Shown here piece by piece: positions 3,169-64,000 of a stretch of DNA of 64,000 nucleotides (the first letter of the stretch is position 1; each line of letters begins with the position of its first letter). The DNA is taken from IMG/VR virus record IMGVR_UViG_3300045988_119743; one strand, given 5' to 3'. The position numbers and the translations under genes are program-made. Source of the stretch: a virus. The notes beneath the pieces are model-generated. The model was not told where the DNA came from, made no database searches, and was given only the letters and a program-made list of their open reading frames with translations.

Positions 3169-4233
3169 ATGAACAATTCAATGGTCGCTCACTTGTGGGC
3201 AAACGAAAAGCAAGAATCAGCGAATGGTAGTAACTTCTATTTTGAAGGAGAAAGTATTTACTCCTATGGAAGACATTTTGAGGTCGGAAGAATCGTGCGA
3301 AACAAGCGTGGGGAAAAGGCGTATTTGATTAATGACATATATTATTCTTCTTCTACAAGCAAACATCAATGTCGTGTTCGTGAAGCAATACCAACTGGCT
3401 CAAAGGTGTTCTATGTTGAATGTAATATATCATATTGTATCGGTAACATGCTCTTTGTTACCAATATGTTGGAATATATTAAAGATGCTATTGAAAAATA
3501 CAAGAAAGCCAGAACCGAATTGTCTTATCGGGATGTTTGGGGAGCTTTTAAAAATATGATGGATTACATTGAGTTCTTCGATATGGGGACTTCCCAGCGT
3601 CTTCTTAAAAAGAGCGCAAACGAATGGCTTGGAACTAACCATGAATTATCACAGAAATCAGATAAGATTAAACGTGAACATGTCCGTGAGTTGAAACGTA
3701 TTTTCCAGATATTGTTGAATCATAAAGCACTGGAAGTCCTTGGAACCGTTAATGTGATTGTAGATGAAGTTTGTGGTGAAGGAACTTATTTGAAATATCG
3801 GGAAAGAGTTGAAAAATATAGAATAAATATAGAAACAAAACAGGAAAAAAAACGAAGGGCAAGGGAAGAAGAATTAGATAAATTTCGTAAGGATTTTTAT
3901 GAAAGATTAGAAAAATGGAAGTCGGGAGAACTTAATTTCTTGCATTCATATTATTTTATTGATTGTGCTGACGTAAATGCTTGGATGCGTATAAAAGGAG
4001 GAATTATTGAAACGAGCAAACAAATAAAAATCGGGATAGAAGAAGCCAGAAGGATGTGGCAGGTGGTGTCGCTGTTGCACCGGGGAGGCCAGTTCCGGCA
4101 TGGCCTGGTAGAGGACGTGGATGGCAATAAGTGGAGCATAAACCGGTATGAAAACGATATACTGACAGCCGGATGTCATCGTATTGCGTATAGTGAGATG
4201 GAAAGTATTGCAAAGCAACTGGGATGGGCGTAA
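3169..4233 (+). CDS. hypothetical protein
   Basis: 354-aa ORF; contains GC-rich island A (~4048-4132). Confidence 0.55.
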   Translation: MNNSMVAHLWANEKQESANGSNFYFEGESIYSYGRHFEVGRIVRNKRGEKAYLINDIYYSSSTSKHQCRVREAIPTGSKVFYVECNISYCIGNMLFVTNMLEYIKDAIEKYKKARTELSYRDVWGAFKNMMDYIEFFDMGTSQRLLKKSANEWLGTNHELSQKSDKIKREHVRELKRIFQILLNHKALEVLGTVNVIVDEVCGEGTYLKYRERVEKYRINIETKQEKKRRAREEELDKFRKDFYERLEKWKSGELNFLHSYYFIDCADVNAWMRIKGGIIETSKQIKIGIEEARRMWQVVSLLHRGGQFRHGLVEDVDGNKWSINRYENDILTAGCHRIAYSEMESIAKQLGWA

Positions 4234-5015
4234 GTAACCCATCTTATTTTATAACAACTAAAAACAAGAAAAATATGGAAAATGCAATTATTGTTCCGTT
4301 TGATTTAAATACGGCGAGAAAAATTAAAAGCGGAGAAATAGAAGGTTCGGTATTAATTGATAATATTGAAATAGAATTTGTATATGAGTCGAAAGACTGT
4401 GCAGGTCCTTATAATTTGCTTTTTGTAAAAAAAGATGGATATGGGATAAGTGCTATATATGCCAACACGGAAGGTTGTATTATTGGCGGCACCACTCTGG
4501 AATTGAGGGTAGAGGCTGGAGCGTATTTTAAGAAAGGAGATGTATTAACAAGCACTAAAGGATGTCAATTTATATATGATGGACTTATTACCAAAGGGGT
4601 AATGGGAAGTATATGTGGAATGGTAACATCTGGAGATATTGAGTTTGATCATAGCGGATTATGGACTGATGTGTATGATGAAGATAAAAAACGGCATGTA
4701 AGAAAGGCTATAGAAGAAGAGAAGAAATTTTTAGCAGAAAAGATTATAAAAGCCGAAGACAGTAGAAAAATAGATATAATAAAACGATATTTAAGTGAAT
4801 ATGAGTATCTATTAGATGAGATGCCGAAACGTGACTTCAAACCATTTGAACGAGTGCTGGTGAGAAGAACTAACCAAGAGAGGTGGAAATTGCATCTATT
4901 TTCCGGAGAATCAGTAGGAGATAATAAATACGAATGCTTGGGAGGGGTAGGATTTAGTCAGTGTATCCCATACGAAGGGAACGAACATCTTTTAGGAACC
5001 AATAAAAACAAATAA
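4224..5015 (+). CDS. hypothetical protein, tandem paralog 1 of 2
   Basis: 263 aa. The N-terminus (IIVPFDLNTARKIKSGEIEG) and C-terminus (KRDFKPFERVLVRR...ECLGG...IPYEGNEHLLGTNKNK) are shared with the next gene. Confidence 0.55.
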   Translation: MGVSNPSYFITTKNKKNMENAIIVPFDLNTARKIKSGEIEGSVLIDNIEIEFVYESKDCAGPYNLLFVKKDGYGISAIYANTEGCIIGGTTLELRVEAGAYFKKGDVLTSTKGCQFIYDGLITKGVMGSICGMVTSGDIEFDHSGLWTDVYDEDKKRHVRKAIEEEKKFLAEKIIKAEDSRKIDIIKRYLSEYEYLLDEMPKRDFKPFERVLVRRTNQERWKLHLFSGESVGDNKYECLGGVGFSQCIPYEGNEHLLGTNKNK

Positions 5016-5019
5016 GATT

Positions 5020-6200: not shown

Positions 6201-6496
6201 AAATAGAATACATACAAAAATGTAAATGCGGCGCAGTCACTATCAGCTTTGATAATGGTGCTTCGAATAGCATGTTTTGGGAAACATTTGAAAAATTGGA
6301 TTTGGATGCTGGTGATGCCACATGGCTTCACCAGTCCTGCTGCTGCAACCACTGCGTCAACCATTGGGGAATAGACTTATGCGAGTGTGGGTCCGGCGCA
6401 AGAGTTGGTGAATGTGAATGTGGATCCCAAAAGGCACATGATATATTAGGGGTTAAATATGATTCGTTTGGAGTAATATTAAAAAACTTTGGATAA
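6197..6496 (+). CDS. hypothetical Cys-rich small protein
   Basis: The likely start is the internal ATG at 6197 (MKIEYIQKCKCG...), which overlaps the upstream stop as ATGA; the track ORF 6125..6496 would overlap the previous gene by 76 nt. Many Cys residues (CCCNHC...CECGSGARVGECECG). Confidence 0.45.
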   Translation: MKIEYIQKCKCGAVTISFDNGASNSMFWETFEKLDLDAGDATWLHQSCCCNHCVNHWGIDLCECGSGARVGECECGSQKAHDILGVKYDSFGVILKNFG

Positions 6497-8748: not shown

Positions 8749-9603
8749 ATGAGCACAAGTAAAGAATACAAGGCAGTAAGGAACTATATATTAAATGAAC
8801 TTCACCTTACCAAAGAAGATATAATCAAAAACATAGAGCCATTATTGGAAAAACTCGTAAAACGGTACATGGTTAATACATATGGAGGTGACAACCAGAT
8901 AGAAAACTGGATCAGATGCATGGTGAATGATGAACTCAAACGAAGAGATCATGATTTTGTAAGAAAAGCGTGCGAGAGCGTCATCAGGAATCATGTATTA
9001 AATGAGTTGAATATAATCGTAAGATCCAAAAGTGAGAAATGTACATGTGAAAACAGAGTACCATCCGAAGAGGATAAGAAAGAGTCAACTGACGGACTGT
9101 ATATAATCTACAAAGACGGACATGCAGAGCCGTTTACCGGCGATAACTCCAAAGATTGTGTACGATACATTGGGTTGAAGCACAGATACATGTCATTTGC
9201 AATCTCACTGACGGAGCATGATATCATACAATTGCTTGACGATGATAGCCGTGAAGAATCCGGAAGTGGGACATATTACGAACGTGAATGTGATGCGCTG
9301 TTTGACATTGACGGATGCGGCAATACGGAACGCCTTGTAGCCAGAAATCCAAAATTGAGAAATCTGCTGGAAGATGGCGAGTATATACCATCTCTTGGTC
9401 AATTAAATTTAATGGCCCATTATATGGACGAACTAAACAAAGCATTCACTTATGTTTCGGCATCTCCCCTCTCCTCGACGTGGTATTGGTCCAGTACTGA
9501 GAGCAGCCAGGCCGTCGCGTGGTACGTGGTCTTCTCCAGTGGCCTCACGGGCACCGGCAACAAGCACATCGGAGACATGGTTCGGGCGGTAATTGATTTT
9601 TAA
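8749..9603 (+). CDS. hypothetical protein
   Basis: 284-aa ORF; the C-terminal ~45 codons lie in GC-rich island B (9462-9590). Confidence 0.5.
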   Translation: MSTSKEYKAVRNYILNELHLTKEDIIKNIEPLLEKLVKRYMVNTYGGDNQIENWIRCMVNDELKRRDHDFVRKACESVIRNHVLNELNIIVRSKSEKCTCENRVPSEEDKKESTDGLYIIYKDGHAEPFTGDNSKDCVRYIGLKHRYMSFAISLTEHDIIQLLDDDSREESGSGTYYERECDALFDIDGCGNTERLVARNPKLRNLLEDGEYIPSLGQLNLMAHYMDELNKAFTYVSASPLSSTWYWSSTESSQAVAWYVVFSSGLTGTGNKHIGDMVRAVIDF

Positions 9604-15628: not shown

Positions 15629-16928
15629 AATATTAATAGATTTAGGGTTTGTACCTATGGTGAAAGGAGAGGGAAATACGTTGTTTAGAATGAACGATGT
15701 TGTGATGTCGGTGTCAGATCCTAACCAAACACCAGAGCAGTTGAAGAAGGAGGTTATGTCTTTAATAAAGAACAGAGACATAGCAGAAAGAGGCGGACAG
15801 GTTCCAGTAGTTAAAGAGCCGGCGCCTGAGCCAGAGCCGGTCCAGAAGGAGGAACCGGAAGCTCAGGCGGAGGAAGCCGCTCCTAACCCTGGAGAAGAAG
15901 ATTCGAATCCGTTTACAGAAAATCAGGAAACATTAGAGCCGTTTTATATCTGTGATGAGTTAAAGAAGATTGAGACCCCCAAATTCGTAAGATTGACATT
16001 AGACGATAATCGTTTTTATGTAAGAAAGATGGATGATGGGACGGCTAAGATATATGCTTCGGTAACAACTTTAATCAAAGATGGGTATGTAGATGATAAG
16101 ACAGCACTTCAGGAATGGAAGCAAGAGATAAAGATGCTTGGTCGCAATCCAGAAGAGGTAGCGCAGTATGAAGCCGATAAGGGAACGATCATGCACTACT
16201 TATACGGATTGTACCTAACAGGTAGAGATATGGTCTTAAATCGAAGCTTTGTGGTTAAGACAGTGCAAGAAGGCAAGCTGAAGATATCTAAGAAAAATCT
16301 TGATCGGTTCTTTAATAGCATAGATGATCTTGACGATATGATTGTCAGGGTCATGAAGTTTGCCAAATTCTGTTCTGATTACAAGGTGAAACCGATGATG
16401 ATAGAAAGAATCCTTTCTTTAGAGGATTACCTTGTAGCAACACCTATTGATGCGATGGTTAAAATGACATTCAAATACAAAGAAGAAGGTTATTTTGGAG
16501 CCGTGTATCAAAGGGCTACCGGACAGTTCAAAAAAGGTGATCCGAAGAAGGAAGTAAGAGAAGTGGAAAAAGAAGAAGTGGTCATTCTTGACTTTAAATC
16601 GGGAGGAATATGGGAATCATATGCATTCCAATTGGAAGCTGAAAGAAGAATGGTTAAAGCATGGTATGGCATTGATGCACGTATTATGAACTTTTCTCCA
16701 AAAAGCACGAGCAGTAAAGGATATACGCTGAAAGAATGGACAGAAGACAGTGTAGCACTTGAAAAGGCGGACTGTGTGTTCCAACAAGGTATGTTGAATC
16801 ACCTTAGAAAAGATAAGAAATTCAAAGTGAGAAAAGGAGTGTTGAATATCAATAAACCATACAATGAAGAGGATCATACGGTTGTATATGATATTGCAGA
16901 GGAAATATCTAAAAGGTTCATGATATAA
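15600..16928 (+). CDS. PD-(D/E)XK (RecB-family) nuclease-domain protein, putative recombination exonuclease
   Basis: C-terminal TPIDAMV...VVILDFKSGG matches the G.ID.../hhDaK(T/S)G motifs. The N-terminal part carries a Pro/Glu-rich linker. Confidence 0.45.
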   Translation: MIGMIEEKIKILIDLGFVPMVKGEGNTLFRMNDVVMSVSDPNQTPEQLKKEVMSLIKNRDIAERGGQVPVVKEPAPEPEPVQKEEPEAQAEEAAPNPGEEDSNPFTENQETLEPFYICDELKKIETPKFVRLTLDDNRFYVRKMDDGTAKIYASVTTLIKDGYVDDKTALQEWKQEIKMLGRNPEEVAQYEADKGTIMHYLYGLYLTGRDMVLNRSFVVKTVQEGKLKISKKNLDRFFNSIDDLDDMIVRVMKFAKFCSDYKVKPMMIERILSLEDYLVATPIDAMVKMTFKYKEEGYFGAVYQRATGQFKKGDPKKEVREVEKEEVVILDFKSGGIWESYAFQLEAERRMVKAWYGIDARIMNFSPKSTSSKGYTLKEWTEDSVALEKADCVFQQGMLNHLRKDKKFKVRKGVLNINKPYNEEDHTVVYDIAEEISKRFMI

Positions 16929-16950: not shown

Positions 16951-17964
16951 ATGCTTGATTTTAGAAAATACGAAAACGTACCTCGGTTTCAACTTGACCG
17001 CAGGCCTGGCAGGAGCCGACTGAAGCTAACCTGCCCGGCTTGCGGGAAAAGCCGGTGCCTTACCCCTTATATTGATGTGGCGACCGGTCAGGTCGTTGGC
17101 AATGAGTTTGGAAGATGCGATCATGAACGAACTTGCGGTTATGATAAACGACCTACCGGCAAGGATGTAGGTGACAAAGATCTTTGGATTTCGGGAAATA
17201 AGTGCATAAGAGCTTATCGTCCTCCTGTAAATCCTGACGTTGTAAATTACATACCTTTTAGCGAGTTTGAGAGGACTGTAGTTCCAGACGATAGAAACAC
17301 CGTATTTAGATTTTTATCGTCTCTATGGGGAAAAGAAAGGGTATCTGACGTATTTAGAAGGTATCATGTTGGAACAATGGACTTATGGGGATGGAAAGGG
17401 TGTTGTATATTCTGGCAGATAGATAAGGACTTTGTATGCAGAACCGGCAAGATTATGGATTTTTATATAAAGACCGACAGCCAGGGGAATGAGATTGATG
17501 TAAAAAGAGTGAAGGAAAAAGACGGTGACAATGAGCGACCTCATGTCATGTTTTATCACTCGTTGCATGCAAGAGACTTCTTGTTTAGACAATGCCTGTT
17601 TGGAGAACATCTTCTAAGCCAGTATCCAGATAAGGTAGTTAATTTGGTGGAGTCAGAAAAGACGGCTATTATATGCGCCGTGAATAAACCAGATGAGTTG
17701 TTTGTAGCTACCGGTGGGTTGCAGAACTTAAGACCGGAAGTGATAGATGTTTTAAAAGATAGAAAGACTGTAGCTTTTCCGGACAAAGGACAAGCATTTG
17801 ACACATGGAGTAAAAAGATAGATGGGATGATGATGAAGTCAAGGATAAAAGTATCGGACTATCTTCAGAGTGTTGAGAATGTAGGGGACGGAGATGATGT
17901 GGCAGATTTGATAATTAATAACAAAGTAAAAGAGAAATATTATGAGCCTGGACGTTTATATTAA
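16951..17964 (+). CDS. DNA primase (zinc finger + Toprim-like)
   Basis: TCPACGKSRC...GRCDHERTCGYD zinc-binding module; a Toprim-like VVNLVESEKTAIICA...TVAFPDKGQAFD. Lies next to the replicative helicase gene. Confidence 0.55.
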   Translation: MLDFRKYENVPRFQLDRRPGRSRLKLTCPACGKSRCLTPYIDVATGQVVGNEFGRCDHERTCGYDKRPTGKDVGDKDLWISGNKCIRAYRPPVNPDVVNYIPFSEFERTVVPDDRNTVFRFLSSLWGKERVSDVFRRYHVGTMDLWGWKGCCIFWQIDKDFVCRTGKIMDFYIKTDSQGNEIDVKRVKEKDGDNERPHVMFYHSLHARDFLFRQCLFGEHLLSQYPDKVVNLVESEKTAIICAVNKPDELFVATGGLQNLRPEVIDVLKDRKTVAFPDKGQAFDTWSKKIDGMMMKSRIKVSDYLQSVENVGDGDDVADLIINNKVKEKYYEPGRLY

Positions 17965-25063: not shown

Positions 25064-26079
25064 TGGTCCCGGAAACGCATTTGCTATATAAGGAGTTTAA
25101 TGGCGTGAAACGTCTTGCCATATCTTATTCCCAGATAGACACGTTTCTTACTTGTCCAATGAAATGGTATAAGACTTACGTAGAGGGCAAAAGGTCTACG
25201 GAAAAACAAGAAGCTACGTCTTATGGTACGGTTATCCATAAGACACTGGAATACTTCTTTAAGAACGGAAGACAGCCTTCTGGAAAAGACCTGGGGGAAG
25301 CTATAAGTTACTATGCTTACCAAGAAGACATACCTTGGCAATCACCGGAAAATATGATGATAGCCATGAAGCAATCCGGGGAGCTTCTTGCTTGGATTGT
25401 GGATCTGTTCAAAAAAGACGGCAATAGGTTTATGATAGCTGATAGTGATCTTAATCCCTGCGAGAAGCTTATCAGACACAGCGCTATAGTTGGAGTCGAA
25501 GAAGATTTTGTGCTGCCGTACCGTCTTCCTAAGCCTGTTAACATAAATGGAGTAATTCATACTCATGTGTACATAGTAGGATCGGTAGACCTTCATCTGG
25601 CTATAAAAAGCAAGAACGTAGTTCACCATTATGTCATAGATTGGAAATCAGGTAATAAGGTTTTTGATTCTAAGAAGTTGGAAACAAATTTACAGCATCC
25701 TATATATTCATTTTACATCTATAGAAGATATGGTGGGGTTCTACCAGATATGAACATCTATTTCTTTACCAGGACCAGGCAGTACCAAAAGGTTAAGGTA
25801 GATGAGGAACGTAAAACAAAATCTATAGAGATGCTAAATGACACTTTGTCTAAAATGTATGATTTTGAAGATAATAGTGTAAAATCATTTCAAGCGTACA
25901 TCCAGGGAGCAGAAGGAGCCAGGTATAGCAAGCGGCGTGCCACCCTAAGCCAGCCTGTTTCGCAAAACAAACTACCCTGCCCGTCGGCGCTGTGTTATTA
26001 TTGTGACTTTGGATTACATAACAAAAACGAATGCCCTTTCTCTTCAGATTGGGATCCGTCTAAAAAGATAAAACGATGA
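25060..26079 (+). CDS. Cas4/RecB-like PD-(D/E)XK nuclease with a putative Fe-S cysteine cluster
   Basis: N-terminal YSQIDTFLTCPMKWY; core GSVDLHL...VIDWKSGNK; C-terminal CPSALCYYCDFGLHNKNEC (C-x4-C-x2-C-x8-C). Confidence 0.6.
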   Translation: MMVPETHLLYKEFNGVKRLAISYSQIDTFLTCPMKWYKTYVEGKRSTEKQEATSYGTVIHKTLEYFFKNGRQPSGKDLGEAISYYAYQEDIPWQSPENMMIAMKQSGELLAWIVDLFKKDGNRFMIADSDLNPCEKLIRHSAIVGVEEDFVLPYRLPKPVNINGVIHTHVYIVGSVDLHLAIKSKNVVHHYVIDWKSGNKVFDSKKLETNLQHPIYSFYIYRRYGGVLPDMNIYFFTRTRQYQKVKVDEERKTKSIEMLNDTLSKMYDFEDNSVKSFQAYIQGAEGARYSKRRATLSQPVSQNKLPCPSALCYYCDFGLHNKNECPFSSDWDPSKKIKR

Positions 26080-43945: not shown

Positions 43946-44169
43946 AATCTGTCCCCTCCTAATCCTGAATTGATGCTAACGTACTTAACACGGACATCAT
44001 TTCCACGTCCAAGCTGACCCCAGCCGGGCGATGGCGTTCCCTTGGCCGGAGCAGGGACAGCCCTAAGCCGAGACCAGTCCTGCTTTTGCCTCATGGCTTC
44101 AGCCTCTTTGTAATACCGGTTACACAGTTCTTGATCTTCGTAACCAACGTAATCTTCCTTATTTTCCAT
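43942..44169 (-). CDS. hypothetical small protein
   Basis: 75-aa ORF; contains GC-rich island I. Confidence 0.35.
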   Translation of the reverse strand: MENKEDYVGYEDQELCNRYYKEAEAMRQKQDWSRLRAVPAPAKGTPSPGWGQLGRGNDVRVKYVSINSGLGGDRL

Positions 44170-52629: not shown

Positions 52630-52668
52630 AAAATTATCCGCAGCATTAAAAAAATCTCCTTCTCATAC

Positions 52669-55600
52669 TCAACACTCTTTATTTAACTCATTTATCGAAT
52701 CCGAATTATCAGAACCTTCTACGAGATTCTTATTTCTATCTATCTCTTCCTGGCTCATATTACTCATCATATTTTGTATTTTTCTACCAGATTGAGATAA
52801 AGAGCGGATGAATGCACTGGAACTTATCTTAACTCCAAGATCCGGTTTTACCCTAAACGCTTCACCGGTACTGATATTATACAAATCATACACACCTGAG
52901 TTCATATAGAATTTATATATCCAGTTTCCACCAGCTTTTTTGTACCCTAATTTGGTTAACTCGACTACACTCATACCAAATTTAATGCCATTACGACCCA
53001 TTATCTTCTCCGGTATAGGTTCTACCTTAGCCGGAACAGATGTATATGCTTCATCACCGCCGTACAGGAAATAAGGGGTTGTTACCCTTGATATGTGAGT
53101 AAGCGGTTCTTCGGATATACGAGGTTCGTCTTTCTCGGCCTTAGATTCTTTCCTTGGATTGGATATTCTAATAAAAGGATCGTATGTTAAAAAGGTTAAG
53201 CCGTATTCTACTTTATAACCTGATACGCCGTTAAGATCCCTTATAGCCTTAGTCGTATGCGAGTGGTTGATGGTGTCTATCCCGTACCTTGATTCCATAT
53301 CGGTCATAATGCTATTAACTTCATCCCCCTCTACATAAACCTCTTCTCCTTCCGGGATAGAGGTTATGCCGGCAGCCCTTCTAAGTAACCATAAAGTAAC
53401 TTCGGCAATATCAGAGAACTTATCTCCGTTCTTCTTATAGTTATCTACTCTTCCTTCTTCAGATCCAGGTAAATAGACATCTCCCTCAGCTTTGCCATCA
53501 TCTCTGGGTTGTCCTTCTCTTTTTCCATCTCCCTTTTTATCGCCATCTTCCTCAGCGCGTACTGCACCGCCTTCTGCACTTCCTTCTTTTCCATCATTTA
53601 AAATATTATCTGATTCTGACTCTATAGACTCCACGACAGCATCATACTCTGGAATGCCGCTAAGGAAATCTGCTACGTTATTCAAAAACTCTATTTTTTC
53701 CTCGTTTGTCATATCAAGGCTTTCCATAGGTCTCCATATGGCAGGCAGGTTATTTAATTCTATTGCAGTAGAAACATCTTCTACAGTTTGATTATCTACC
53801 GTAGGCAAAACTTCAGAAACCAAACTATTGATGTCAGATTCCATTTTTTCTACTTCCTCTTTTGTGCCATATTCTTTTAGGGTATCCATGCCATTGACTC
53901 TAAGAGAATAATTCAAAGCCTTGCTTGGAACAAAATTAATATATTTCAAAAAGTTTTTCAACTCTGATATAATTTGTTCGTCAGATCTTGGCCCAACATA
54001 ATCAACCACCACCTGATCTGTTTGAGAACGAAGCCAAGAAACGTATTCTTCTAAGGTCTTACCACCTTTACTGGAAGGAGTGGATATTTTATCACCTACT
54101 GTTCCTTTAGGTTCTAATCCCATTTCTTCCTTAAGGCTTTTAGGATTACCTCTCTCACGAAGAAACCTCAAATCACCTCCTACAATCTTCCTTGCTATAA
54201 AATCAAAAATATTAGCATAAGGCGGCAATCCCTCTTTTTCTATATGAGATTCTATTTCGTTTAACATAAGAGAGAAGTTTTTCCTGGAGGTACGCTTCTT
54301 GCCAGGTAAAGACCGCGCAGCTTGTGCCGCAGGAGTCGGCTGAGCTAATGGCGCCGGCTGAGTCTCCCGGACAGCCCCTTCCTCTGGCATTTCCTCTTCA
54401 TAAACATCCACGTCTTCTTTAGAAGTAACGGTCTTACCCTCATCAGAGAAAGGAAGATCATCCTCTATAAGTGATTTAGGTCTAGAAGATGATTTACCAA
54501 ACTGAATCCTGATCTTAGGAGCGACAAACATCTCACCTTCGAAATCTATTCCAGATTCTACTTCAGACATCACAATGTCTTTCACATTCCTGCTTTCATC
54601 TTCTACCCATTTAACAACATCAGGAACCGTAGATAATTTTTCTATAGCCTCACGAGCTTTTCTAAGCCCTGAAATAGGATTCAAATACGATACTTGATAC
54701 GAAGCCGGATCAAGGCCTAACTTGGTTAGATACGCATTAAGATCTTGTATATCATCTTGACCCATCTGTAACAATTCAGAGTCACCTGATTCAAGCAGCA
54801 TATCTATAAAAGAAATCCATTTCTTTCCTTCCTCTGATTCCACAGAACGTAGACTAACCGGGAAAAGATAATTAAGACCGTTTTTGCCTTTGATGACAAC
54901 TACCGGAACTCTTACATTTTTGTAATTATTCCCCTTGTCATTTAATATAGAATAAGCAAATGGGAAGCCTGTGTATTTAGATCCGTTCTTAAGCACGACT
55001 TTGCCATTTAATACATATCCGACATCAGATACTTTTTCAGCTCCTTTTTCGGTAATAGGGAGATTTTCTACCTGACCATATCCTTGACCGTTTACTCTCA
55101 TGTTAAACACCGGTCTTCCAGGAAGGGTCTGGGCAACAACATGCGTGCCGACGTTGATGGTGGCCGACCGGCCGGCGTCCTTCTTCCACTTGTTAAAAGC
55201 CGTTCTTCTTATCTTACTTATACCATCTATGCCTCCTGTGTCAGCTTTTACAACAGAAACGAATCTGTTTCCACTCATGACCTTGATAACCATATTGGAT
55301 ACCAGCTTATTTTCAGCAGATTCTATTCTTTTTTTATCACCGGACTGAACAGCATCATTGTATTCGGCAAAAAGAGACTGATTATAGGTATCATTTGCAT
55401 CTATCTCAAGATTAACCTTATCTCCTTTCTTCAAAGAAGATAATGCTTCCTGATCTATTTTATCTACTTCATTCTCTCCGAATCCAACACCTGTTCTGTA
55501 CGGAACCAATTCGTCTGAATCAAGACGCTTATAAACCAAAGAATATGAATTACCCACGTCCTGAATAGACACATCTGTGTAACGGTTAAGAACACGAGCC

Positions 55601-58600
55601 GATTCTTTGTCTATAGACCATCTCGCATGATAAGGCAGTTCAATTATAGTAGCCGTTTCTCCACCTATGTTAAGAGAATACCTTTTAGTACCATTAGCGT
55701 TCGTTTCAGAGCTTATTTGAATAGGAACCAATGATTTTATAGAAGATATAAATTTATCGGCTCTAAGACCTGCAATTTCATACCTTTCATTGCCGTCATT
55801 GGAGATTCTTCTTACCATCAACGTCTCTGGATTCTGGGCGCTATCTATATTGGCTCCCGGCGTATTATCAGATTCGTCTAATTCATTTACAAGAGAATCT
55901 ATATTAGCATCATCCTCCCCAAAATTACTTAACGTAGATTCGGAAATACGACCTTTATCAATAATCCTGTTTTGTTCGATATAAGGAAGGAGATCCGTGA
56001 TGTTTCCAACCTGGCCAAGATCTTCTATGGTAAATACCGAATCGGCAAGCTTATCTTCGTCAACTTTCTCCCCTTTGTCCCGTCTGTTCATTATATCAAC
56101 ATACGAAGAAATAGCATCATCAAGTTCCTTCCTTTGATCTGGTTCCAAATTGGATTTAGCCATATCAATAATAGCTTTATTATCCTCATACACAGATCTC
56201 GGACTTGTAAGCCTATCAGCCTTTTCAGATAATGATTTTATGAGATTAACGGGACTGTCACCCAAAGACGATACATAATCATCAAAATCTTGTTTGTATT
56301 TATCATACACATCTTTTTCTCTCTCAGTAAGAAGATCGGCATTACCTGTATATAGTTTATCAATTATAGACTGCCTTACGGCCGGAACCATAATAGGATT
56401 ATCCATAGCAGCCTCATAATCTTCATCCGATACAGACTCCGTAAGCGGTGACTCTTTTATATCATCTTCTGCTTCCTTCATCCTATCTTCCCTTACTTTA
56501 TCAAGAGCATGCATAAAAGCCTTGATAGTCCAAGCTTCGTCTTCCGAAATCTTACCTTCTGACACAGCTTGATCTACTACCTCATCAGTGTCATATTCAC
56601 CAACTTTATTAGACTCTGCAAAATCAGGAACCTTGTCATCCCCTTTATAAGGAGTAGACCATAGAGAAGACAGCGCTTTTGAAAACCCCCTGTTTTCCTC
56701 AGCTAAGAATCTTTTATCAAGCATCTTAGACAAGAAGTTATTCATATTCCTATAGTCCATCAAACTTCTTCGGTATTCATTTACCAAGGATCTCATGGCT
56801 TTGTCTTTGGCTGTAAACTTCTTTTCCTGTCTTGATTTTACATTAAAATAATCATCAAAAGCCACAAGCGTATCATAGGCTTCTATCACATCTTGTGAAC
56901 TTATGGGAGAAAGAGGAGATGATAAAACAGATTCGGTTTTACTTACCAGCTCTTCTATCGAAAACTCTTTTCCTATTAACGTTGATAACTCAGACAACGA
57001 ATTGTTGTAATTGGTTCTAAGGCTTTCCAATTCTTTGGTTTTTCGTTGTATGGATTCAGCTTGTGGATCTTTCCCTTCTACGTTGCGAGGGCGGGTAGCA
57101 AGATCTTCTATTTCGGATTCAAGTTCTTCTATTCTTGACCGTATGCCACGGATAGCCATCGCCCGCTCCCTTGCCCTGTCCGACAGCCGGGAGAACGTAC
57201 TTAGAGCATCCGCCACGCGAGGCTGCCCCGAAAGCGTTTCTATGACAGAAGCTATGTCTTTCATTCTTGATTCCGATTGAAGACCAAGAAAAGCATTACG
57301 AGCCACGTATTTCCTAAACTCAATCTTAGAATCATCACCTATAAGATCTTCGGCAAAACTCTGGGCAGATCTGAAATCCGAAAGACGATTATTATAATTA
57401 TCAATAATAGAGTCCTTGTATTTCTTTGCCTCTTCCAAAGACATTCCATTAGCTTCGGCTATTTCCGAAATAGGCATCATATCAATCATCTGCCGGAAAT
57501 TTTCAGCCGAATCCTCTAAGGTTCCCATTTGGTTGTCAATAGACATCTTTTCAAACATAGCATCATCAAGCTCCTTACCAGTCATAGACTGGGCATCGGA
57601 ACGAACTTGAGGCCCTAAACTCATTGATTTTTTCAACGTATTCAAAGCCGCCGTGTTAAGATTAGAAGATGCTTTGTTATATTCATTCACTTGCCTTTCC
57701 AGCAAGATCTGACTATTACTATACTCTTTCACCCCAAAGAAGCCTTCTCTCATACCAAACAAAGAACCGATAATAGCACCGATTCCTATTTCAGTCCATC
57801 CTTCTTTAGACGTATATTGCTTTTTAAATCCTTCAGAAATAGCATCAAGAACATCAACGGCTCCGTTCATGGCGACATTATCATATCTTGACTTAACATA
57901 TTCCTCAGCCGTATTCTGAACAGCACCTTGAGATCCTTCTTCCCATAAGCCTTCAGATACCGGTCTTTTCATGATATTGAAAACATTGCCTGCTATCTTC
58001 TGTCCTATATTGGGATTGGTTATTTTAATAGCCATCTCTCCCGGCTTCGCAACTTCCGTCCCTAATCCAAATAAATGCTTGTTGAGCCTCTTTTCCAACC
58101 CTGGTATAGCCTTGCCTCCTAACCCTATATACTTACCAAAAAGAAGCCAGTTAGATAATCCTACGATACCCATATTGGCGGCAAATATAGCACTACCTAC
58201 ATCAGCATTAGAATTACGAAAAACAGCCATTTCCTCTGCATTGGGATCACGACCATAAATCTTACGATAATAATCCTTGAAATCAGACTCAGATTGCTTC
58301 ATAAAAGAATTTGCTTCAACCGATGACTCGAATCCGGCACTGGTAGCCAACAACGTCATGGTCTTAGCCGCCTCCCCTACATTTCTTCCGGTAGCAACTC
58401 CTTTTCTTACATAGTCGTTAAACACGCTTTTAAGGCTTCCTATGCCCCTATTGGCAGCTTGCCTTGCTGCTAACTTAGCTCCGATTCTTCCACCTAATTT
58501 AGCGCCTATATTACCCAATGATCCAACTCCAAGTCCTCCGGTCATGTACGCTGATATCATGGCTCCTACGGTAAAAGACATACCATTACCAAGGACGTCA

Positions 58601-59310
58601 TTCCACAAGAAATTACCGGTATCCTTAAAAAGCTTCTGACCAAAATTATAATCTTCTACCTCTTTCTTGTAATAATGGGGAAGAAGCATGTCTATTTGCT
58701 GGTCAAGATCACCTACAAACTTATCCATGTTAGTGTTTAACGCAGCTTTGTAACTTCCCTCAGATGCCATATTGATAAGTTTGTCAGGCAATGACACAAC
58801 TCCTTGTGCACCGTACAATGCGGATTTTAAAGCGAATTTGCCTACACCATTCCAAAACTTACTCCATCCGCTCTGTCTCCTGGCATAATAATCTTCATTG
58901 TTTATACCCGGAATATAGTTAGAATATTTTGTACGCCATACCCCATCATTACCCATCTGATGACTTTCACGGATACTTACCTTCGGTCCATAGGGATTAA
59001 GAGGCGGCGGGGCAGGTGTAGCCCCCCTGTAGCTGTTACGAGCCAGTGCCTCTGAGTAGCTGTTGCTTATCTCCTTGGCTATATACGGTTCTTCGTATTC
59101 GGCAGCAGCTATCCTTGATGCGTAATCCGGAAATTTAGGTTGGGCATACACACCTTCACCAGGCATATAATTAGGAACCAGAGGCGTTGTCGTCTCTGGT
59201 AATGTAGCCGGAGTGTAATTCTCTTCTTCGGCTAATTTCCTTTGCCTTGCCACATCTTCGTAAGTGGTTTTAGCAGCAGGATTATATCTATCTATATTAT
59301 TGTCAGCCAT
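52669..59310 (-). CDS. giant virion-associated protein (2213 aa)
   Basis: Uninterrupted 6.6-kb ORF with an internal acidic/Gly low-complexity linker (AEEDGDKKGDGKREGQPRDDGKAEGD). Overlaps the upstream 1019-aa gene by 8 nt. Confidence 0.8.
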   Translation of the reverse strand: MADNNIDRYNPAAKTTYEDVARQRKLAEEENYTPATLPETTTPLVPNYMPGEGVYAQPKFPDYASRIAAAEYEEPYIAKEISNSYSEALARNSYRGATPAPPPLNPYGPKVSIRESHQMGNDGVWRTKYSNYIPGINNEDYYARRQSGWSKFWNGVGKFALKSALYGAQGVVSLPDKLINMASEGSYKAALNTNMDKFVGDLDQQIDMLLPHYYKKEVEDYNFGQKLFKDTGNFLWNDVLGNGMSFTVGAMISAYMTGGLGVGSLGNIGAKLGGRIGAKLAARQAANRGIGSLKSVFNDYVRKGVATGRNVGEAAKTMTLLATSAGFESSVEANSFMKQSESDFKDYYRKIYGRDPNAEEMAVFRNSNADVGSAIFAANMGIVGLSNWLLFGKYIGLGGKAIPGLEKRLNKHLFGLGTEVAKPGEMAIKITNPNIGQKIAGNVFNIMKRPVSEGLWEEGSQGAVQNTAEEYVKSRYDNVAMNGAVDVLDAISEGFKKQYTSKEGWTEIGIGAIIGSLFGMREGFFGVKEYSNSQILLERQVNEYNKASSNLNTAALNTLKKSMSLGPQVRSDAQSMTGKELDDAMFEKMSIDNQMGTLEDSAENFRQMIDMMPISEIAEANGMSLEEAKKYKDSIIDNYNNRLSDFRSAQSFAEDLIGDDSKIEFRKYVARNAFLGLQSESRMKDIASVIETLSGQPRVADALSTFSRLSDRARERAMAIRGIRSRIEELESEIEDLATRPRNVEGKDPQAESIQRKTKELESLRTNYNNSLSELSTLIGKEFSIEELVSKTESVLSSPLSPISSQDVIEAYDTLVAFDDYFNVKSRQEKKFTAKDKAMRSLVNEYRRSLMDYRNMNNFLSKMLDKRFLAEENRGFSKALSSLWSTPYKGDDKVPDFAESNKVGEYDTDEVVDQAVSEGKISEDEAWTIKAFMHALDKVREDRMKEAEDDIKESPLTESVSDEDYEAAMDNPIMVPAVRQSIIDKLYTGNADLLTEREKDVYDKYKQDFDDYVSSLGDSPVNLIKSLSEKADRLTSPRSVYEDNKAIIDMAKSNLEPDQRKELDDAISSYVDIMNRRDKGEKVDEDKLADSVFTIEDLGQVGNITDLLPYIEQNRIIDKGRISESTLSNFGEDDANIDSLVNELDESDNTPGANIDSAQNPETLMVRRISNDGNERYEIAGLRADKFISSIKSLVPIQISSETNANGTKRYSLNIGGETATIIELPYHARWSIDKESARVLNRYTDVSIQDVGNSYSLVYKRLDSDELVPYRTGVGFGENEVDKIDQEALSSLKKGDKVNLEIDANDTYNQSLFAEYNDAVQSGDKKRIESAENKLVSNMVIKVMSGNRFVSVVKADTGGIDGISKIRRTAFNKWKKDAGRSATINVGTHVVAQTLPGRPVFNMRVNGQGYGQVENLPITEKGAEKVSDVGYVLNGKVVLKNGSKYTGFPFAYSILNDKGNNYKNVRVPVVVIKGKNGLNYLFPVSLRSVESEEGKKWISFIDMLLESGDSELLQMGQDDIQDLNAYLTKLGLDPASYQVSYLNPISGLRKAREAIEKLSTVPDVVKWVEDESRNVKDIVMSEVESGIDFEGEMFVAPKIRIQFGKSSSRPKSLIEDDLPFSDEGKTVTSKEDVDVYEEEMPEEGAVRETQPAPLAQPTPAAQAARSLPGKKRTSRKNFSLMLNEIESHIEKEGLPPYANIFDFIARKIVGGDLRFLRERGNPKSLKEEMGLEPKGTVGDKISTPSSKGGKTLEEYVSWLRSQTDQVVVDYVGPRSDEQIISELKNFLKYINFVPSKALNYSLRVNGMDTLKEYGTKEEVEKMESDINSLVSEVLPTVDNQTVEDVSTAIELNNLPAIWRPMESLDMTNEEKIEFLNNVADFLSGIPEYDAVVESIESESDNILNDGKEGSAEGGAVRAEEDGDKKGDGKREGQPRDDGKAEGDVYLPGSEEGRVDNYKKNGDKFSDIAEVTLWLLRRAAGITSIPEGEEVYVEGDEVNSIMTDMESRYGIDTINHSHTTKAIRDLNGVSGYKVEYGLTFLTYDPFIRISNPRKESKAEKDEPRISEEPLTHISRVTTPYFLYGGDEAYTSVPAKVEPIPEKIMGRNGIKFGMSVVELTKLGYKKAGGNWIYKFYMNSGVYDLYNISTGEAFRVKPDLGVKISSSAFIRSLSQSGRKIQNMMSNMSQEEIDRNKNLVEGSDNSDSINELNKEC

Positions 59311-62300
59311 AAATTTTCTGCAAAAAATCGTTCAACTTACTAAACTTGTCATTCATATTGGGCGTGATATTTATTCCTCTCATATACGGATCCCTCATCT
59401 GATCAAGACGTTCTTGAACAGCCTCCTTCACGTATTTTACAAAGAAGTACTGAGGACACTTCTGGTGAATGCTATTCCAGTAATCCGCATACTCATCATT
59501 ACCTGGATCCAAAGGAACAAAATCCGAGAACAACAATGCAGGATTTTTAGAATTTTTAGTCCTTTTGTCATAGAAATTGACCGCTACCTCTCTTGAACCC
59601 CTGTCATCCATTCCCTCCAACTGAACTGATATGTTATCAGACATGTCAATAAAATTATCAACAAGGGTTTTAACAACATTCATTTCTTCTGGCTTAAGGT
59701 AAGAACCATGAACCTTTACTATATCATAAAGATCATTCTTAACATCAGCCTTAGAAGCCAAACGGGGAAGACCATTACGTATAAGATACTTATCATAAGA
59801 ATAACCTTCCTTCTTTCCGGTATCTACAAAATCACAGGTTCCAAAACTTGATTTGTAACCATCCACCGGATAATTACGCTCCTCGACCGAAGGATCTATA
59901 CCCGCCTTAAGAAGCTCGTCATTCGTAATCTCAACCCTTTCTGTAACATAAGAATTTTTACCGGAACCTACTTGAGCAGTCAAGAATCTTCTAACAGTGC
60001 CATTATCTATCTCGGCATCCATATTAATGGCATTAATAGCAGTAGGATCCAGATTATTTACCTTTCCTGCCATGTAACCAGACAATCTTCTAAACTGAGC
60101 CTTCTGCAAAGACTTTTCCGGTGAATCGGCATTCCAATTGTATCTTTTGTAAGAATCAAGGTAATGATACTGAGATAACTTATCAGAAATCTGATCAGGA
60201 GATACAGACATTTTTATCTCATCCTGCATCTGACCTGCTATCATATCAGACACTCTACTGTTTTTCTCAGCATATCTTAGCTGGGTAATAGTTAATGGTT
60301 CACCTTCCTGATAATCTTTTAAATCTATATCACCATCCTTATCTATGGTCATATAATCTGATATATTAAAATCAGGATCGCCGTTGAGTTTCTTCATTCC
60401 ATTAATAAGAGCCAATGTACCAGTAGAAGAACCATTATTCTCGCTTGTAATAGCATCAGATATGTTTTTCCCCAACTTGCCGGCACTCGCCTTAGCTCCT
60501 AATGACGGAGATATAGCACTAAGAATATCTATTCCTCTTGAAGGGTCCATCATGTATTCTCTGAACCCTACGGCATCAGATACACCAGTTGTTATGGCTG
60601 TGGCGAGCAGGAAGGCTCCAGCCTTATCATCTGTATCGGTAAGATTTATAAAAGAATTTCCTTTCATAAACTTAGCATTACGAACTTTACTGATAATATC
60701 CTTATTTTTTTTAGTAACTATATTATCTATTTGATAATCAGTTATGTTATTTATAGCCTTTGTAGCTCCATTTGCCTTAGAATCAGAAAGAAGTAAAGCA
60801 TCATAAGCTTCAGACAATCTGTTATTTCCTTGTCCAAAATATCCGTTTTTCTGACCTCCATTATTTTTTAAATAAGAATATATCCGTTCTTCAGGAGTCA
60901 TATTAGCATACAATCCTGGGTCAGTTTTTTCTTCTTCGTATGATGCTGCAACGATATTACTTCTGTCTGTAGGAGATAATGAATTATATAATTTCAATAA
61001 ATTTGCTCTACGCTCTGTGGAAGAAGATGTGAGTTGTTCATAAGGGATATTAGCCAAATTAACAGATCCTATCTTACCCGTTCCAGAATTGATAGCCGTA
61101 GGCCCGTCCATAGGAGCCATCGGCACTCCTACACCGCCTGCTCCTCTTGTGCCTCCGGATGAGCTTTCAGTGCCCATCTTGGAACCGTAAGTACGCATGT
61201 ATTCGGTTTCAATCTCAGCCTGTGCAAGTTGCTCTTTTGCCAACGATATTTCAACCATAGACTTAGCATTATCAGTCAAAAACTTTTGCTGAGCCCTATC
61301 CTCTGCCAACCTTGCAAAATAAAGATCATCTTTCTTCCTTTCAAAACTTGTATTGTCGTATCTCCATGCATCAGTCATCTTATCGAAAAGATTATTGGTA
61401 ACAACAAAATTAGCAGCCGCTACCGGATCTGATGAAGCTATTATCATATCTGCCTCCCTCTTGGCTTCTGCTTTCTGATTTTTAGCTTCCTGTATCTGAC
61501 TGTCAATACGATCAATAATATCCTTATTATCCCCTACTGATTTCTTTTTTGCTTCCAATGCTCCTATGTGCCTATCGTATCTTTCGACATAAGACCCAAT
61601 GTATTGACTAACCAAATCCGGATTACTGAACACCGGATTGGTAGCTGCCATGTATGATGCTTCTATTCTCATCTGATTCCTCATGTTTTCAGATAAGTTA
61701 GCAGACACAAAATTCCTTATCTGGGAATCAGTAAGCTCATCTACGTTGACTTCTATGATTCCACCAGTAGGATTACCTTTAACATCATATTCTGTTGTCT
61801 GAATCTTCTTGCCTTCGTTGTTTTTCCTAAAATCACTGACCAGCTTATTTATCTCCTTAGTATAATCGACATAAGGAGAATAATGAAGACCTCCCAACCT
61901 TGATCCTGCTTTACCATCTGACCTCCATTTGTAATAAGGGTCCAAAGCATGCCATTCATTAATAGGAGAATAAAGTTCAGGATGATTCTGTTTTATAGAT
62001 TCTATTTCCTTCATAACCCTCTTGCCTTCTTTTGTGCCGGCAATCGCGTTAATGACCGTATCATCTAACACCGAACTTATCTCTCCTTGTATGGCTCTCG
62101 TAACACCATCAGAAGAAAGATCCACGCCTTTGAATTTTTGATTGATGTTAGCAATCACACCTGACATCTTATCTTCCATATAAGCGCGGGCTTCAGGCTT
62201 ATCTATCTCTTGACCCATAAGATAATCTACCTGGGTATAGATCTTTTCACGAGCAGCATCAACCTTCTGCTGTTTGTACATCATGACGTCCTTAACAAGA

Positions 62301-62362
62301 TCTATGTTGTAAGGACTAACATACGGGGCATATTGCCTTAAAATACTATACTGTGAAGCCAC
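59303..62362 (-). CDS. large virion-module protein (1019 aa)
   Basis: Uninterrupted 3-kb ORF; ATGA-type overlap with the upstream gene at 62362. Confidence 0.75.
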   Translation of the reverse strand: MASQYSILRQYAPYVSPYNIDLVKDVMMYKQQKVDAAREKIYTQVDYLMGQEIDKPEARAYMEDKMSGVIANINQKFKGVDLSSDGVTRAIQGEISSVLDDTVINAIAGTKEGKRVMKEIESIKQNHPELYSPINEWHALDPYYKWRSDGKAGSRLGGLHYSPYVDYTKEINKLVSDFRKNNEGKKIQTTEYDVKGNPTGGIIEVNVDELTDSQIRNFVSANLSENMRNQMRIEASYMAATNPVFSNPDLVSQYIGSYVERYDRHIGALEAKKKSVGDNKDIIDRIDSQIQEAKNQKAEAKREADMIIASSDPVAAANFVVTNNLFDKMTDAWRYDNTSFERKKDDLYFARLAEDRAQQKFLTDNAKSMVEISLAKEQLAQAEIETEYMRTYGSKMGTESSSGGTRGAGGVGVPMAPMDGPTAINSGTGKIGSVNLANIPYEQLTSSSTERRANLLKLYNSLSPTDRSNIVAASYEEEKTDPGLYANMTPEERIYSYLKNNGGQKNGYFGQGNNRLSEAYDALLLSDSKANGATKAINNITDYQIDNIVTKKNKDIISKVRNAKFMKGNSFINLTDTDDKAGAFLLATAITTGVSDAVGFREYMMDPSRGIDILSAISPSLGAKASAGKLGKNISDAITSENNGSSTGTLALINGMKKLNGDPDFNISDYMTIDKDGDIDLKDYQEGEPLTITQLRYAEKNSRVSDMIAGQMQDEIKMSVSPDQISDKLSQYHYLDSYKRYNWNADSPEKSLQKAQFRRLSGYMAGKVNNLDPTAINAINMDAEIDNGTVRRFLTAQVGSGKNSYVTERVEITNDELLKAGIDPSVEERNYPVDGYKSSFGTCDFVDTGKKEGYSYDKYLIRNGLPRLASKADVKNDLYDIVKVHGSYLKPEEMNVVKTLVDNFIDMSDNISVQLEGMDDRGSREVAVNFYDKRTKNSKNPALLFSDFVPLDPGNDEYADYWNSIHQKCPQYFFVKYVKEAVQERLDQMRDPYMRGINITPNMNDKFSKLNDFLQKIYG

Positions 62363-64000
62363 TATTTGGTCCTCCTTCTTCTTTTAATTTCATCATCTTC
62401 TTCATTTAAACTTCTCAAGTAAGGTGTGGAATAATCACCCATATTCATCACATCCTGATTACCTTGAACGTAAATAATTTGACCACTTGGAAGCATTCTC
62501 ATATTTGGAGCTATGGAAGCTATGGTATTCAACGATGTACGAACATTGAACTTATTCTGTATCTCGCTGTTTATACTATCATAATAACGAGCAAGATTTT
62601 CATCCCTTATAGCCATAGCCTTCAATAATCCAGATTCATAACGTTGCCTTTCCGCTATGTTCTTATCGTCTGTCTGAACATAAGCCATTTCATTGAATCT
62701 ATCAGCTTCGTTTATTTGCCTTGCGTTATTGAAATTTACTTCGTTAATGTACTTGGCTATATTGCTTCCGGCTATGGCGTTCATATTAGCCAGAATAGCG
62801 GAGCGCTGGGAGTCGGGCACGTCACCTACTGCGTCCAACTGAGCCGATGTCGCGCGGTTGAGCTCGTTGATATACTGATCAGCAGATTGCAGAACAGGAT
62901 CTATTCTCGGAGCCTGATGCCTTTCCAATCCCTCTATCTCTAATCCGGTATCAAGCATCCTCAACATCTCAGGGAATATAGGACCTGATAAAGCAGGATT
63001 GACACCTTTTCTTCCTTTTGTATCATCTTCTTCCTCAGCTTCCGTTTCTACAGTAGTATTAATAACAGGATTTTCTTTCTTCACTTCTATCCTGCCTGGA
63101 GAACCTGGGTTGGGAGATTTAGCGCCGGTTCCTACAGGTTCAGCTTCTATAGGTTTTGATGCCGGATTTACGGCTTCTAAAACAAAGTCTGTTTCTAACA
63201 TCAAACCGCTATCTTTTAAAGCAGCAAACTTATTATAATCGGCACCCAGAATCTTCTTAGCTGCATCAGATTTATCACCAAATAAGTCAACATAATTCTT
63301 TATCCCTTTTTCGTTCAACAATCTCTTTTGTTCAGGAGTAACTACATCCAATCCATAAAATGATCTGGTTGCCGTAGTTTGCCCAAATTTGTCATCTACG
63401 GCAAATGAGTTATATGCCGATTTACTTCCTTGGTCGTACTTACCAGCATCTTCTCCCCAAAATCCGTATTCGTCTCTAAATTTCTTGGCTTTTTCGGCAT
63501 TGGCTATAGCACCTGATTCTGCCAAAGCCCATAGGTTGTTTAGTTGGCTATTGTATCCAGTCTGGAATCCTTCTGTATTAAAATCTCCATCCGTATTGTA
63601 TTTATTAGCCCAACGGTTAATATCAAGCAAATTAGAAATAGCTTTGTTGTTTACCCTACCATAACCGGAACTGCTTCTGTGTTGCAGATTTTGATTAGAA
63701 TTTACACCAGAATCAGGATTAAGGATCTGCTCTCTGTCTGCAACATCTACTATAGACATATTAAGAGCACGTCCAAACTGCTTCATTAAAAGCTGCTGTA
63801 CTTTCTTACCCCACTCTATTTGCTCTTTGGTAGGGCCGCCTTCAGCCATTTTCCTAACTCTCTTTACATACTCATCGTATATCCAATTTTTAGCATCAGA
63901 TTCAGATACGTTAAGAGCCTTAGCCTGCTTTCTTACGGCATTTAAATCAACCTTTCCGCCATCTCTAAAGAAAGCATCTATCTTTTCTTGGCGCTTGGAT
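62362..64000 (-). CDS. virion-module protein, probably 5'-truncated by the window end
   Basis: The track gives 62362..63849 (495 aa, MAEGG...). However, the same frame stays open with no stop from 63850 to 64000 (..SKRQEKIDAFFRDGGKVDLNAVRKQAKALNVSESDAKNWIYDEYVKRVRKMAEGG), so the real start may lie beyond the window. Confidence 0.55.
   Translation of the reverse strand, partial: SKRQEKIDAFFRDGGKVDLNAVRKQAKALNVSESDAKNWIYDEYVKRVRKMAEGGPTKEQIEWGKKVQQLLMKQFGRALNMSIVDVADREQILNPDSGVNSNQNLQHRSSSGYGRVNNKAISNLLDINRWANKYNTDGDFNTEGFQTGYNSQLNNLWALAESGAIANAEKAKKFRDEYGFWGEDAGKYDQGSKSAYNSFAVDDKFGQTTATRSFYGLDVVTPEQKRLLNEKGIKNYVDLFGDKSDAAKKILGADYNKFAALKDSGLMLETDFVLEAVNPASKPIEAEPVGTGAKSPNPGSPGRIEVKKENPVINTTVETEAEEEDDTKGRKGVNPALSGPIFPEMLRMLDTGLEIEGLERHQAPRIDPVLQSADQYINELNRATSAQLDAVGDVPDSQRSAILANMNAIAGSNIAKYINEVNFNNARQINEADRFNEMAYVQTDDKNIAERQRYESGLLKAMAIRDENLARYYDSINSEIQNKFNVRTSLNTIASIAPNMRMLPSGQIIYVQGNQDVMNMGDYSTPYLRSLNEEDDEIKRRRRTK

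Follow-up and report, generated by a model that had tools for sequence, protein, structure and literature searches.

A 64-kb stretch of viral DNA (IMG/VR virus record IMGVR_UViG_3300045988_119743; hereafter the window, meaning the whole stretch analysed) is part of a ~150-kb phage genome that is common in the human gut. It has a guanine-plus-cytosine (GC) content of 38.1% and shares ~94.5% identity with 'phage csAssE-Sib' (OR575929.1; 151 kb; from the human gut), with which it is co-linear save for a few replaced blocks. Hundreds of contigs of the same species, at 89-97% nucleotide identity, are present in IMG/VR, and the closest cultured relatives are the Cellulophaga phages phi17:2 and phi4:1, with a helicase identity of ~34%. 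Genes for replication and accessory functions lie on the plus strand up to ~33.7 kb; beyond this point the structural genes, including open reading frames (ORFs) of 2140, 2213 and 1019 amino acids (aa), lie on the minus strand. Within these ordinary genes are about twenty patches of ~100 bases in which the GC content rises to 60-72%. Here, we describe these GC-rich islands, which are probably maintained actively by a fixation bias favoring G and C, and weigh the processes that may underlie such a bias.

The islands were located with sliding 80-nt windows, the mean GC content of which is 0.381 (standard deviation 0.073) and not the ~35% given as the background in a preliminary description of this DNA. 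The 14 GC-rich tracts listed in that description were all recovered in place, with maxima of 0.61-0.71 per 80 nt, and the scan added six more (Table 1). Are there more islands than expected by chance? As a null, synonymous codons were permuted within each gene 200 times, which preserves both the proteins and the codon usage. At a threshold of at least 0.60 GC per 80 nt, 22 tracts are observed against a shuffled mean of 6.6 (maximum 12), and at a threshold of at least 0.65, 10 tracts against 1.2 (maximum 4). When the threshold is set relative to the mean, observed and shuffled counts are 25 and 10.7 at mean + 0.20, and 14 and 2.0 at mean + 0.25. The same test applied to 50 kb of phage T4 and 50 kb of phi17:2 gave about one tract each, with no excess over the shuffles. 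Set beside these two control phages, the islands are unusual for a phage.

The bias is strongly synonymous, as had been described. In 27-codon windows, the GC content at third codon positions (GC3) of the islands is 0.67-0.93, against 0.35-0.40 predicted from the amino acids (z up to 6.4); outside the islands, GC3 is ~0.37. Island codons are CGG, GGC, GCG, CTG, GTG, TCC, GAC, AAG and GAG, the fractions in and out of islands being 0.33 vs 0.06 for CGG, 0.40 vs 0.13 for GGC and 0.82 vs 0.26 for GAC, and they are not the ones favored by the capsid genes (CGT, GGT, GCT and TCT). Third-position maps reveal box-like runs of ~25-35 codons, with 17 consecutive G/C-ending codons at 55.15 kb. On the sense strand of the islands G is about equal to C, and in genes overall G exceeds C. 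The preliminary description was also right that the islands share no sequence and occur in unrelated genes on both strands, but its statement that the signal lies at the nucleotide and not at the amino-acid level is only half correct: the synonymous shift toward GC is real, and yet island peptides are enriched in amino acids with GC-rich codons. The GC content expected from the amino acids of the islands is 0.43-0.53, and about one third of the islands outlast synonymous shuffling. Thus, with the amino acids shifted GC-ward as well, the signal is at both levels.

How widely are the islands conserved? Strain variation was followed in four sets of 80 contigs (~320). Within the species, almost all islands are found in all strains. 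The exception is 41807-41890, where an AT-rich allele is carried by 26 of 66 strains and by csAssE-Sib, and recombinant haplotypes exist. In this segment 28 of the first 43 codons differ between csAssE-Sib and the window, 11 of them with amino-acid changes, R/G/P/T in the GC allele corresponding to K/H/N/V/F in the AT allele. Beyond the species, a sister lineage is represented by the Logan contigs L163/L164 and L228. Its proteins are ~67% identical to those of the window, its GC content is 34.6%, and its third-position identity of 0.38-0.45 is near saturation. All four islands of L163 are at places homologous to the window islands at 44000, 41807, 38528 and 34475, and with the helicase island of L228 five sister-shared islands were tested, their third-position identity to the window being 0.41-0.45. 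In L228 the helicase motif III segment (66% aa identity) has a GC3 of 0.74, whereas its third-position identity is only 0.41. Shared islands thus differ in third-position bases as much as other regions do (0.41), and their amino acids are often different too. When 126 aligned segments of 25 codons are compared, GC3 along the window is correlated with GC3 along the sister lineage (r=0.41, p=2e-6), also after amino-acid correction (r=0.25, p=0.004). A query of IMG/VR with a 66%-identical helicase (P0237) returned distant phages only; the sister-lineage DNA was taken from Logan and European Nucleotide Archive (ENA) contigs. L393 (59-70% identity, 31% GC), L394, L229 and L230 are without the primase, DnaB, exonuclease and helicase islands of the window, and they have a few islands of their own elsewhere. 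As the sister lineage shares islands that other relatives at similar or greater distance do not have, the islands are long-lived but turning over.

Table 1. GC-rich islands of the window and the non-coding GC-rich region at its start. Maximum GC is per 80 nt; expected GC3 is that predicted from the amino acids; L163 belongs to the sister lineage, and L229, L230, L393 and L394 are other relatives.
Position	Strand	Location	Maximum GC	GC3	Remarks
4020..4159	+	Near 3' end of ORF 3169-4233 (hypothetical protein)	0.65	0.78 (expected 0.35)	At 3' edge of mosaic block 3786-4140, divergent from csAssE-Sib
6304..6416	+		0.575		Added by scan; weaker, partly polymorphic; 6360-6400 AT-rich in csAssE-Sib
9438..9601	+	C-terminus of ORF 8749-9603 (DUF3988 / Lcl_C-like)	0.66	0.93 (expected 0.38, z 6.4)	Weak Lcl_C match at aa 242-281
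15766..15919	+	P/E/A-rich linker, ORF 15600-16928 (replication factor)	0.675	0.49	Added by scan; mostly amino-acid-driven
16963..17115	+	N-terminus (zinc ribbon), primase ORF 16951-17964	0.64	0.62-0.67	Homologous place without island in L393, L394, L229, L230
20327..20495	+	C-terminus, DnaB-like helicase ORF 19384-20517	0.675	0.89	Missing in L393, L394, L229, L230; strain-specific TnpB insertion at 20480
24058..24215	+	A/E-rich coiled coil, flotillin-family ORF 22819-24519	0.60		Added by scan
25883..26012	+	Near C-terminus, PD-(D/E)XK exonuclease ORF 25060-26079	0.61		Homologous place without island in four relatives
27330..27462	+	Helicase motif III (aa ~129-163), SF2 helicase ORF 26952-28373	0.64	0.81-0.83	Missing in L393, L394, L229
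32262..32435	+	ORF 31970-32692	0.70	0.78	
34447..34568	-	Giant structural ORF 33826-40248 (aa ~1898-1925)	0.61		Added by scan; L163 at these codons: GC3 0.72-0.76, many third-position differences
38489..38644	-	Giant structural ORF 33826-40248 (aa ~548-574)	0.71	0.89	L163 homologue: island at 12735-12869, GC 0.60, local aa identity just ~0.35
41788..41901	-	N-terminus, ORF 41606-41911 (T4_Y16D family)	0.60		Added by scan; polymorphic; L163 has an island nearby, 10073-10190
43967..44127	-	Small ORF 43942-44169	0.69		L163 homologue of the ORF: island at 3175-3344, GC 0.65
54265..54419	-	Giant structural ORF 52669-59310 (aa ~1641-1670)	0.675		Present in 76/76 strains
55086..55213	-	ORF 52669-59310 (aa ~1374-1401)	0.65	0.78	
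57110..57263	-	ORF 52669-59310 (aa ~691-722)	0.675	0.70	
58947..59089	-	ORF 52669-59310 (aa ~86-107)	0.61		
61061..61207	-	G-rich segment, ORF 59303-62362	0.64		Added by scan
62752..62895	-	ORF 62362-63849	0.64	0.74	
736..839	.	IS200/IS605-type terminal hairpin region			Separate class; non-coding

Polymorphism at the third positions of 19 islands in the four strain sets is informative about how such a composition persists. The minor allele was taken as the derived state, with no outgroup, and changes were classed as G or C to A or T (S>W) or the reverse (W>S). Rare variants (at most two copies) in islands comprise 84 S>W and 26 W>S, which implies an equilibrium GC3 of 0.38, the same value as outside (0.38). 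Common variants in islands comprise 73 S>W and 44 W>S, with an implied equilibrium of 0.54. From rare to common, the W>S share in islands increases from 0.24 through 0.30 to 0.38 (Fisher test of rare vs common, P=0.03). Outside the islands the share is 0.52, 0.50 and 0.49, S>W and W>S being balanced in each frequency class, as expected at compositional equilibrium. Counted per GC site, rare S>W variants are in excess in islands (odds ratio 1.5, P=0.0025), and common ones are depleted (0.19 vs 0.32). This spectrum is the signature of a fixation bias favoring G/C. Since rare variants represent the mutational input, which is equal in and out of islands, a local mutational cause is excluded, and the spectrum together with the persistence of islands across saturated divergence rules out neutral relics of a single import. 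The bias acts on composition and not on sequence: it extends to all three codon positions and to the choice of amino acids, and it is strand-symmetric. Active maintenance of the islands by GC-favoring fixation is therefore the probable reading.

What, then, is the engine of this bias? The islands are ~80-130-nt stretches of ordinary coding sequence in which a persistent, position-specific bias probably sets which alleles reach high frequency. New mutations in them are AT-biased to the same degree as elsewhere; GC-to-AT variants remain rare, and AT-to-GC variants gain share as their frequency climbs. Islands are gained and lost between lineages, and part of the population has lost one of them by replacement with an AT-rich allele. 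We tentatively propose that sites of recurrent recombination undergo GC-biased gene conversion or repair, a reading to which we would give somewhat less than an even chance. G and C would be favored in heteroduplex DNA during conversion or repair; the phage population is heavily recombining and carries many DNA-breaking mobile elements (inteins, TnpB and IscB). Such conversion would be the phage analogue of the GC3 spikes at eukaryotic recombination hot spots, which in yeast, birds and mammals are associated with GC-biased gene conversion. It has reportedly been proposed for bacteria as well.

As gene conversion and selection predict equal frequency spectra, a link to recombination was looked for. 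Mosaicism in the population is extreme: measured against the window, there are ~11 distinct clusters of breakpoints in a kb. Pairs of single-nucleotide polymorphisms bracketing islands have a lower r2 than pairs in control intervals of the same genes (0.137 vs 0.184, P~0.1) and a higher four-gamete fraction (0.855 vs 0.770, P~0.03). A number of observations weigh against gene conversion as the engine. This linkage-disequilibrium signal is marginal, and gene-level differences could account for it. Islands show no enrichment of the breakpoints called by a hidden Markov model (27 vs 23.5 expected, P=0.2), which are too dense to localize, or of the boundaries of structural variants (inteins, TnpB and others), with 3 islands within 30 nt of one against 3.3 expected. 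No island lies at the Walker-A intein site of the helicase, at which homing is frequent. The frequency-spectrum test reaches just P=0.03 with derived alleles called by minor-allele status and no outgroup, and selection would give an identical spectrum. A functional element would account for the box-like edges and uniform length equally well or better. Direct support for recombination hot spots is thus weak, nothing in the analysis points to what would set their location, and we know of no phage in which GC-biased conversion has been demonstrated. A literature search on GC-rich islands, biased conversion in phages and the csAssE-Sib phage found nothing relevant. The whole argument should be read with its scale in mind: sequence data, two control phages, and P-values of 0.03-0.1 in the key tests.

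Selection on composition is a close rival and a possible, if rather unlikely, alternative. In this case, a functional 'GC block' would provide local stability of the DNA or mRNA duplex or would slow the ribosome with non-preferred codons; it might, for instance, hinder exonucleases, DNA melting or branch migration, and any GC-rich sequence of ~100 nt would do. The frequency spectrum applies to it equally, the sister lineage keeps island positions without conserving their sequence, and the size is uniform and the edges are sharp. Several island codons (CGG, GGC, GGG, TCC and TCG) are non-preferred when judged by the capsid genes, and the folding energies of the islands, -20 to -55 kcal/mol, are presumably much lower than in their AU-rich surroundings. 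Yet shuffled sequences of equal composition fold as well as the islands do (mean z ~ -0.2), the location of islands relative to gene starts and ends is inconsistent, and their spacing is not regular (coefficient of variation 0.70, P=0.11). Single islands are dispensable, as is evident from the AT allele at 41807-41890 and from the relatives at similar distance that have none. The C-ending codons TTC and AAC, which are preferred in the capsid genes, are enriched in islands too, and thus the islands are better characterized by their GC content than by the rarity of their codons. A narrower version, in which the islands are functional, composition-defined elements in core genes selected only for duplex stability, as barriers or as pause sites for ribosome or polymerase, seems slightly more doubtful. 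A different origin, suggested in the preliminary description, is the import of short conversion tracts from homologous genes of a GC-rich related phage. The codon usage of the islands resembles that of a high-GC genome, the edges are sharp, and island 4045-4135 ends a divergent mosaic block; the suggestion fits best at 41807-41890, where a block allele segregates that differs in amino acids and forms recombinants. It fares worse elsewhere. No GC-rich donor is seen in phage records, IMG/VR or protein collections, although no search was aimed at donors. Sister islands occupy the same positions with unrelated third-position bases, and hence a single import would have decayed; the islands persist, although input at the level of the rare variants would bring GC3 down to 0.38; and more than 20 independent imports of ~100 nt, none of them longer, are implausible. 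The sister islands and the ongoing GC-favoring fixation argue for a persistent local process rather than one-off imports, which we regard as improbable.

Less probable again are two further explanations. In a local mutational regime, GC nuclei forced by the protein sequence would breathe less and shield nearby cytosines from deamination, so that third positions drift GC-ward. Windows with a GC content of at least 0.6 at the first two codon positions (GC12) are indeed tenfold likelier to have a GC3 of at least 0.6. However, the overall coupling of GC3 to GC12 is weak (r=0.11) and most high-GC12 windows have a normal GC3; high GC at positions 1 and 2 is insufficient for an island. As the rare variants imply equal equilibria in and out of islands, and rare S>W variants are commoner in islands rather than rarer, this regime is very unlikely. 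The same holds for sequence-specific elements, namely conserved structured RNAs, protein sites or guide-RNA sites of TnpB/IscB. TnpB and IscB elements are common in the phage population, and conserved mRNA structures and protein or guide binding sites had been raised in the preliminary description, the guide sites with reference to a tnpB gene at the window edge. When 17 islands were folded as mRNA and compared with dinucleotide shuffles, the mean z was about -0.2, and only two fell below -2: 15790-15910 (z -2.4) and 16975-17110 (z -3.1). A tRNA scan of the window found none, an Rfam search at the gathering threshold gave no match, a search for direct and inverted repeats revealed no family linking the islands, and a k-mer search revealed no island-specific motif. 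GCCGG/CCGGC, present in 14 of 20 islands, was rejected as an island mark because it is enriched genome-wide, being threefold over-represented across the window (GCCGG, 107 vs 34 expected; none of 100 shuffles reaches 107). Third-position diversity is 0.100 in islands and 0.113 outside, 4-fold diversity is 0.132 and 0.135, and third positions are unrelated between lineages; the actual bases of the islands are under no constraint. With no Rfam or motif match, no excess of folding and normal diversity, RNA structures and guide or protein sites are not supported, and sequence-specific elements are largely refuted. None of the three candidate explanations in the preliminary description stands in the form given there. 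The tnpB gene belongs to an insertion sequence (IS) that accounts solely for the non-coding region 736-839.

The islands resemble several known systems in part. With hot spots of GC-biased conversion they have in common a rise in GC at all codon positions without sequence conservation, AT-biased input with GC-favoring fixation, some amino-acid change and turnover between lineages. They are unlike them in being ~100 nt and not kilobases long, in residing in a virus, in their near-box edges and in their marginal link to recombination. Clusters of rare codons at conserved positions in coding sequences have reportedly been described. They, too, consist of ~25-40 non-preferred codons, the positions being partly conserved and the codons themselves not. 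CGG, GGC, TCC and TCG are non-preferred in the capsid genes, and positions are common to the sister lineage, though not to L393, L394, L229 and L230. The islands are unified by G/C and not by rarity, their amino acids are shifted, and relatives at similar distance do not have them. Rickettsia palindromic elements and yeast mitochondrial GC clusters are in-frame or short GC-rich mobile inserts, and they likewise appear as short GC-rich patches in the genes of an AT-rich genome. They are, however, repeated palindromic insertions that add residues, whereas the islands have neither a shared sequence nor a palindrome and encode native protein segments. An in-frame mobile GC-rich insert of this type was rejected on the same grounds, the helicase island aligning residue for residue with motif III in four homologues. 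In size (~100-130 nt) the islands are similar to the variable regions of diversity-generating retroelements (DGRs), and one island is at the C-terminus of an Lcl_C (C-type-lectin-like) protein. Neither the window nor csAssE-Sib contains a template repeat for this island (9440-9603), which in csAssE-Sib occurs at a single place and is 100% identical; thus, it is not a DGR target.

The likeness to the ends of IS200/IS605 elements and to omega-RNA scaffolds is limited to 736-839, a GC-rich hairpin region adjoining tnpA and tnpB. The preliminary description had counted 770-835 as a weaker in-frame island, but this is part of the non-coding terminal region. For the in-frame islands, proximity to element ends is no greater than expected by chance. 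The tnpB gene is on the minus strand, with its N-terminus at ~490, and runs off the window edge; the fragment matches HTH_OrfB_IS605 (E=1.3e-4). A decayed tnpA is at ~540-735 on the plus strand. The hairpin CCCCTGCTTAAAAGCAGGGG at 736-755 adjoins the translated TnpB N-terminus and TnpA fragments. The region 1-839 is missing from csAssE-Sib, with which it has no alignment, and strain L043 has an intact copy of 1650 nt, with both tnpA and tnpB, inserted at 18904.

Transposons that encode RNA-guided nucleases abound in this phage population. Insertions of ~1.2-1.9 kb that are specific to particular strains are found at 18904, 19400, 20480, 26553, 31984, 40247, 41607-41619, 44170-44425 and 48705-48732. 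The first five encode either an IscB-like HNH/RuvC protein or TnpB, the latter alone or together with a Y1 or serine TnpA; the other four are TnpB-like by size (~1.2-1.35 kb) and low GC content (~0.30) only. IS607-like insertions and replaceable cassettes are also polymorphic among strains. In many strains, the helicase gene 26952-28373 is interrupted in its Walker A motif, after aa 36, by a 344-aa Hint/homing-endonuclease intein, and in others the intein is another one, located at the DExH motif after E119; the window allele is intein-free. More distant helicase homologues have inteins at the same Walker A and DExH sites, and their match boundaries suggest further insertion sites.

Several other features of the window are recorded here. 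A broad, non-punctate GC-elevated block at 44990-47280 (~45.0-47.3 kb) covers capsid-region genes; its codons (CGT, GGT, GCT, TCT and CCG) are unlike those of the islands and are consistent with an expression-linked codon preference. CTAG occurs once against ~110 expected and GGCC 52 times against ~125; together with the GCCGG excess, these biases suggest restriction avoidance and are possibly a footprint of CCGG-type methylation or very-short-patch repair. The islands at 15790-15910 and 16975-17110 flank the junction of the replication-factor and primase genes, and 9 strains have an insertion of ~550 nt at 16926-16930. Accessory genes include the flotillin-family gene (22790-24700), missing in at least 11 strains, and a C-5 cytosine methyltransferase gene (30265-31456), missing in 29 of 80. 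Between the islands at 41807-41890 and 44000-44085, the cassette region 41913-43900 is hypervariable and is replaced or deleted in many strains (from ~1.98 kb to ~1.55 kb in 16 of them). Two paralogous ORFs, 4224-5015 and 5020-5757, lie side by side and have repeated segments in common (repeat families D5 and D8). At 51400-52700, direct repeats (51400-51441/52080-52121, 88% identical; 52034-52080/52654-52700, 98% identical) enclose a cassette of 573-620 nt. The cassette, 52081-52653, holds ORF 52135-52629, is missing in csAssE-Sib and in 19-36 strains, and resembles a tandem duplication or a cassette bounded by repeated intergenic sequence.

Whether conversion or selection is at work, the islands skew analyses of codon usage, horizontal transfer and host prediction, and annotators should recognize them. 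If gene conversion is the engine, the islands of this abundant gut phage would clearly exemplify punctate GC-biased conversion in a virus, with thousands of natural strains available for measuring the conversion bias; this reading bears on the debate over whether biased conversion or selection shapes base composition in prokaryotes and viruses. If selection is the cause, the islands would represent a novel kind of element, one that lies hidden inside genes and is defined by its composition alone.

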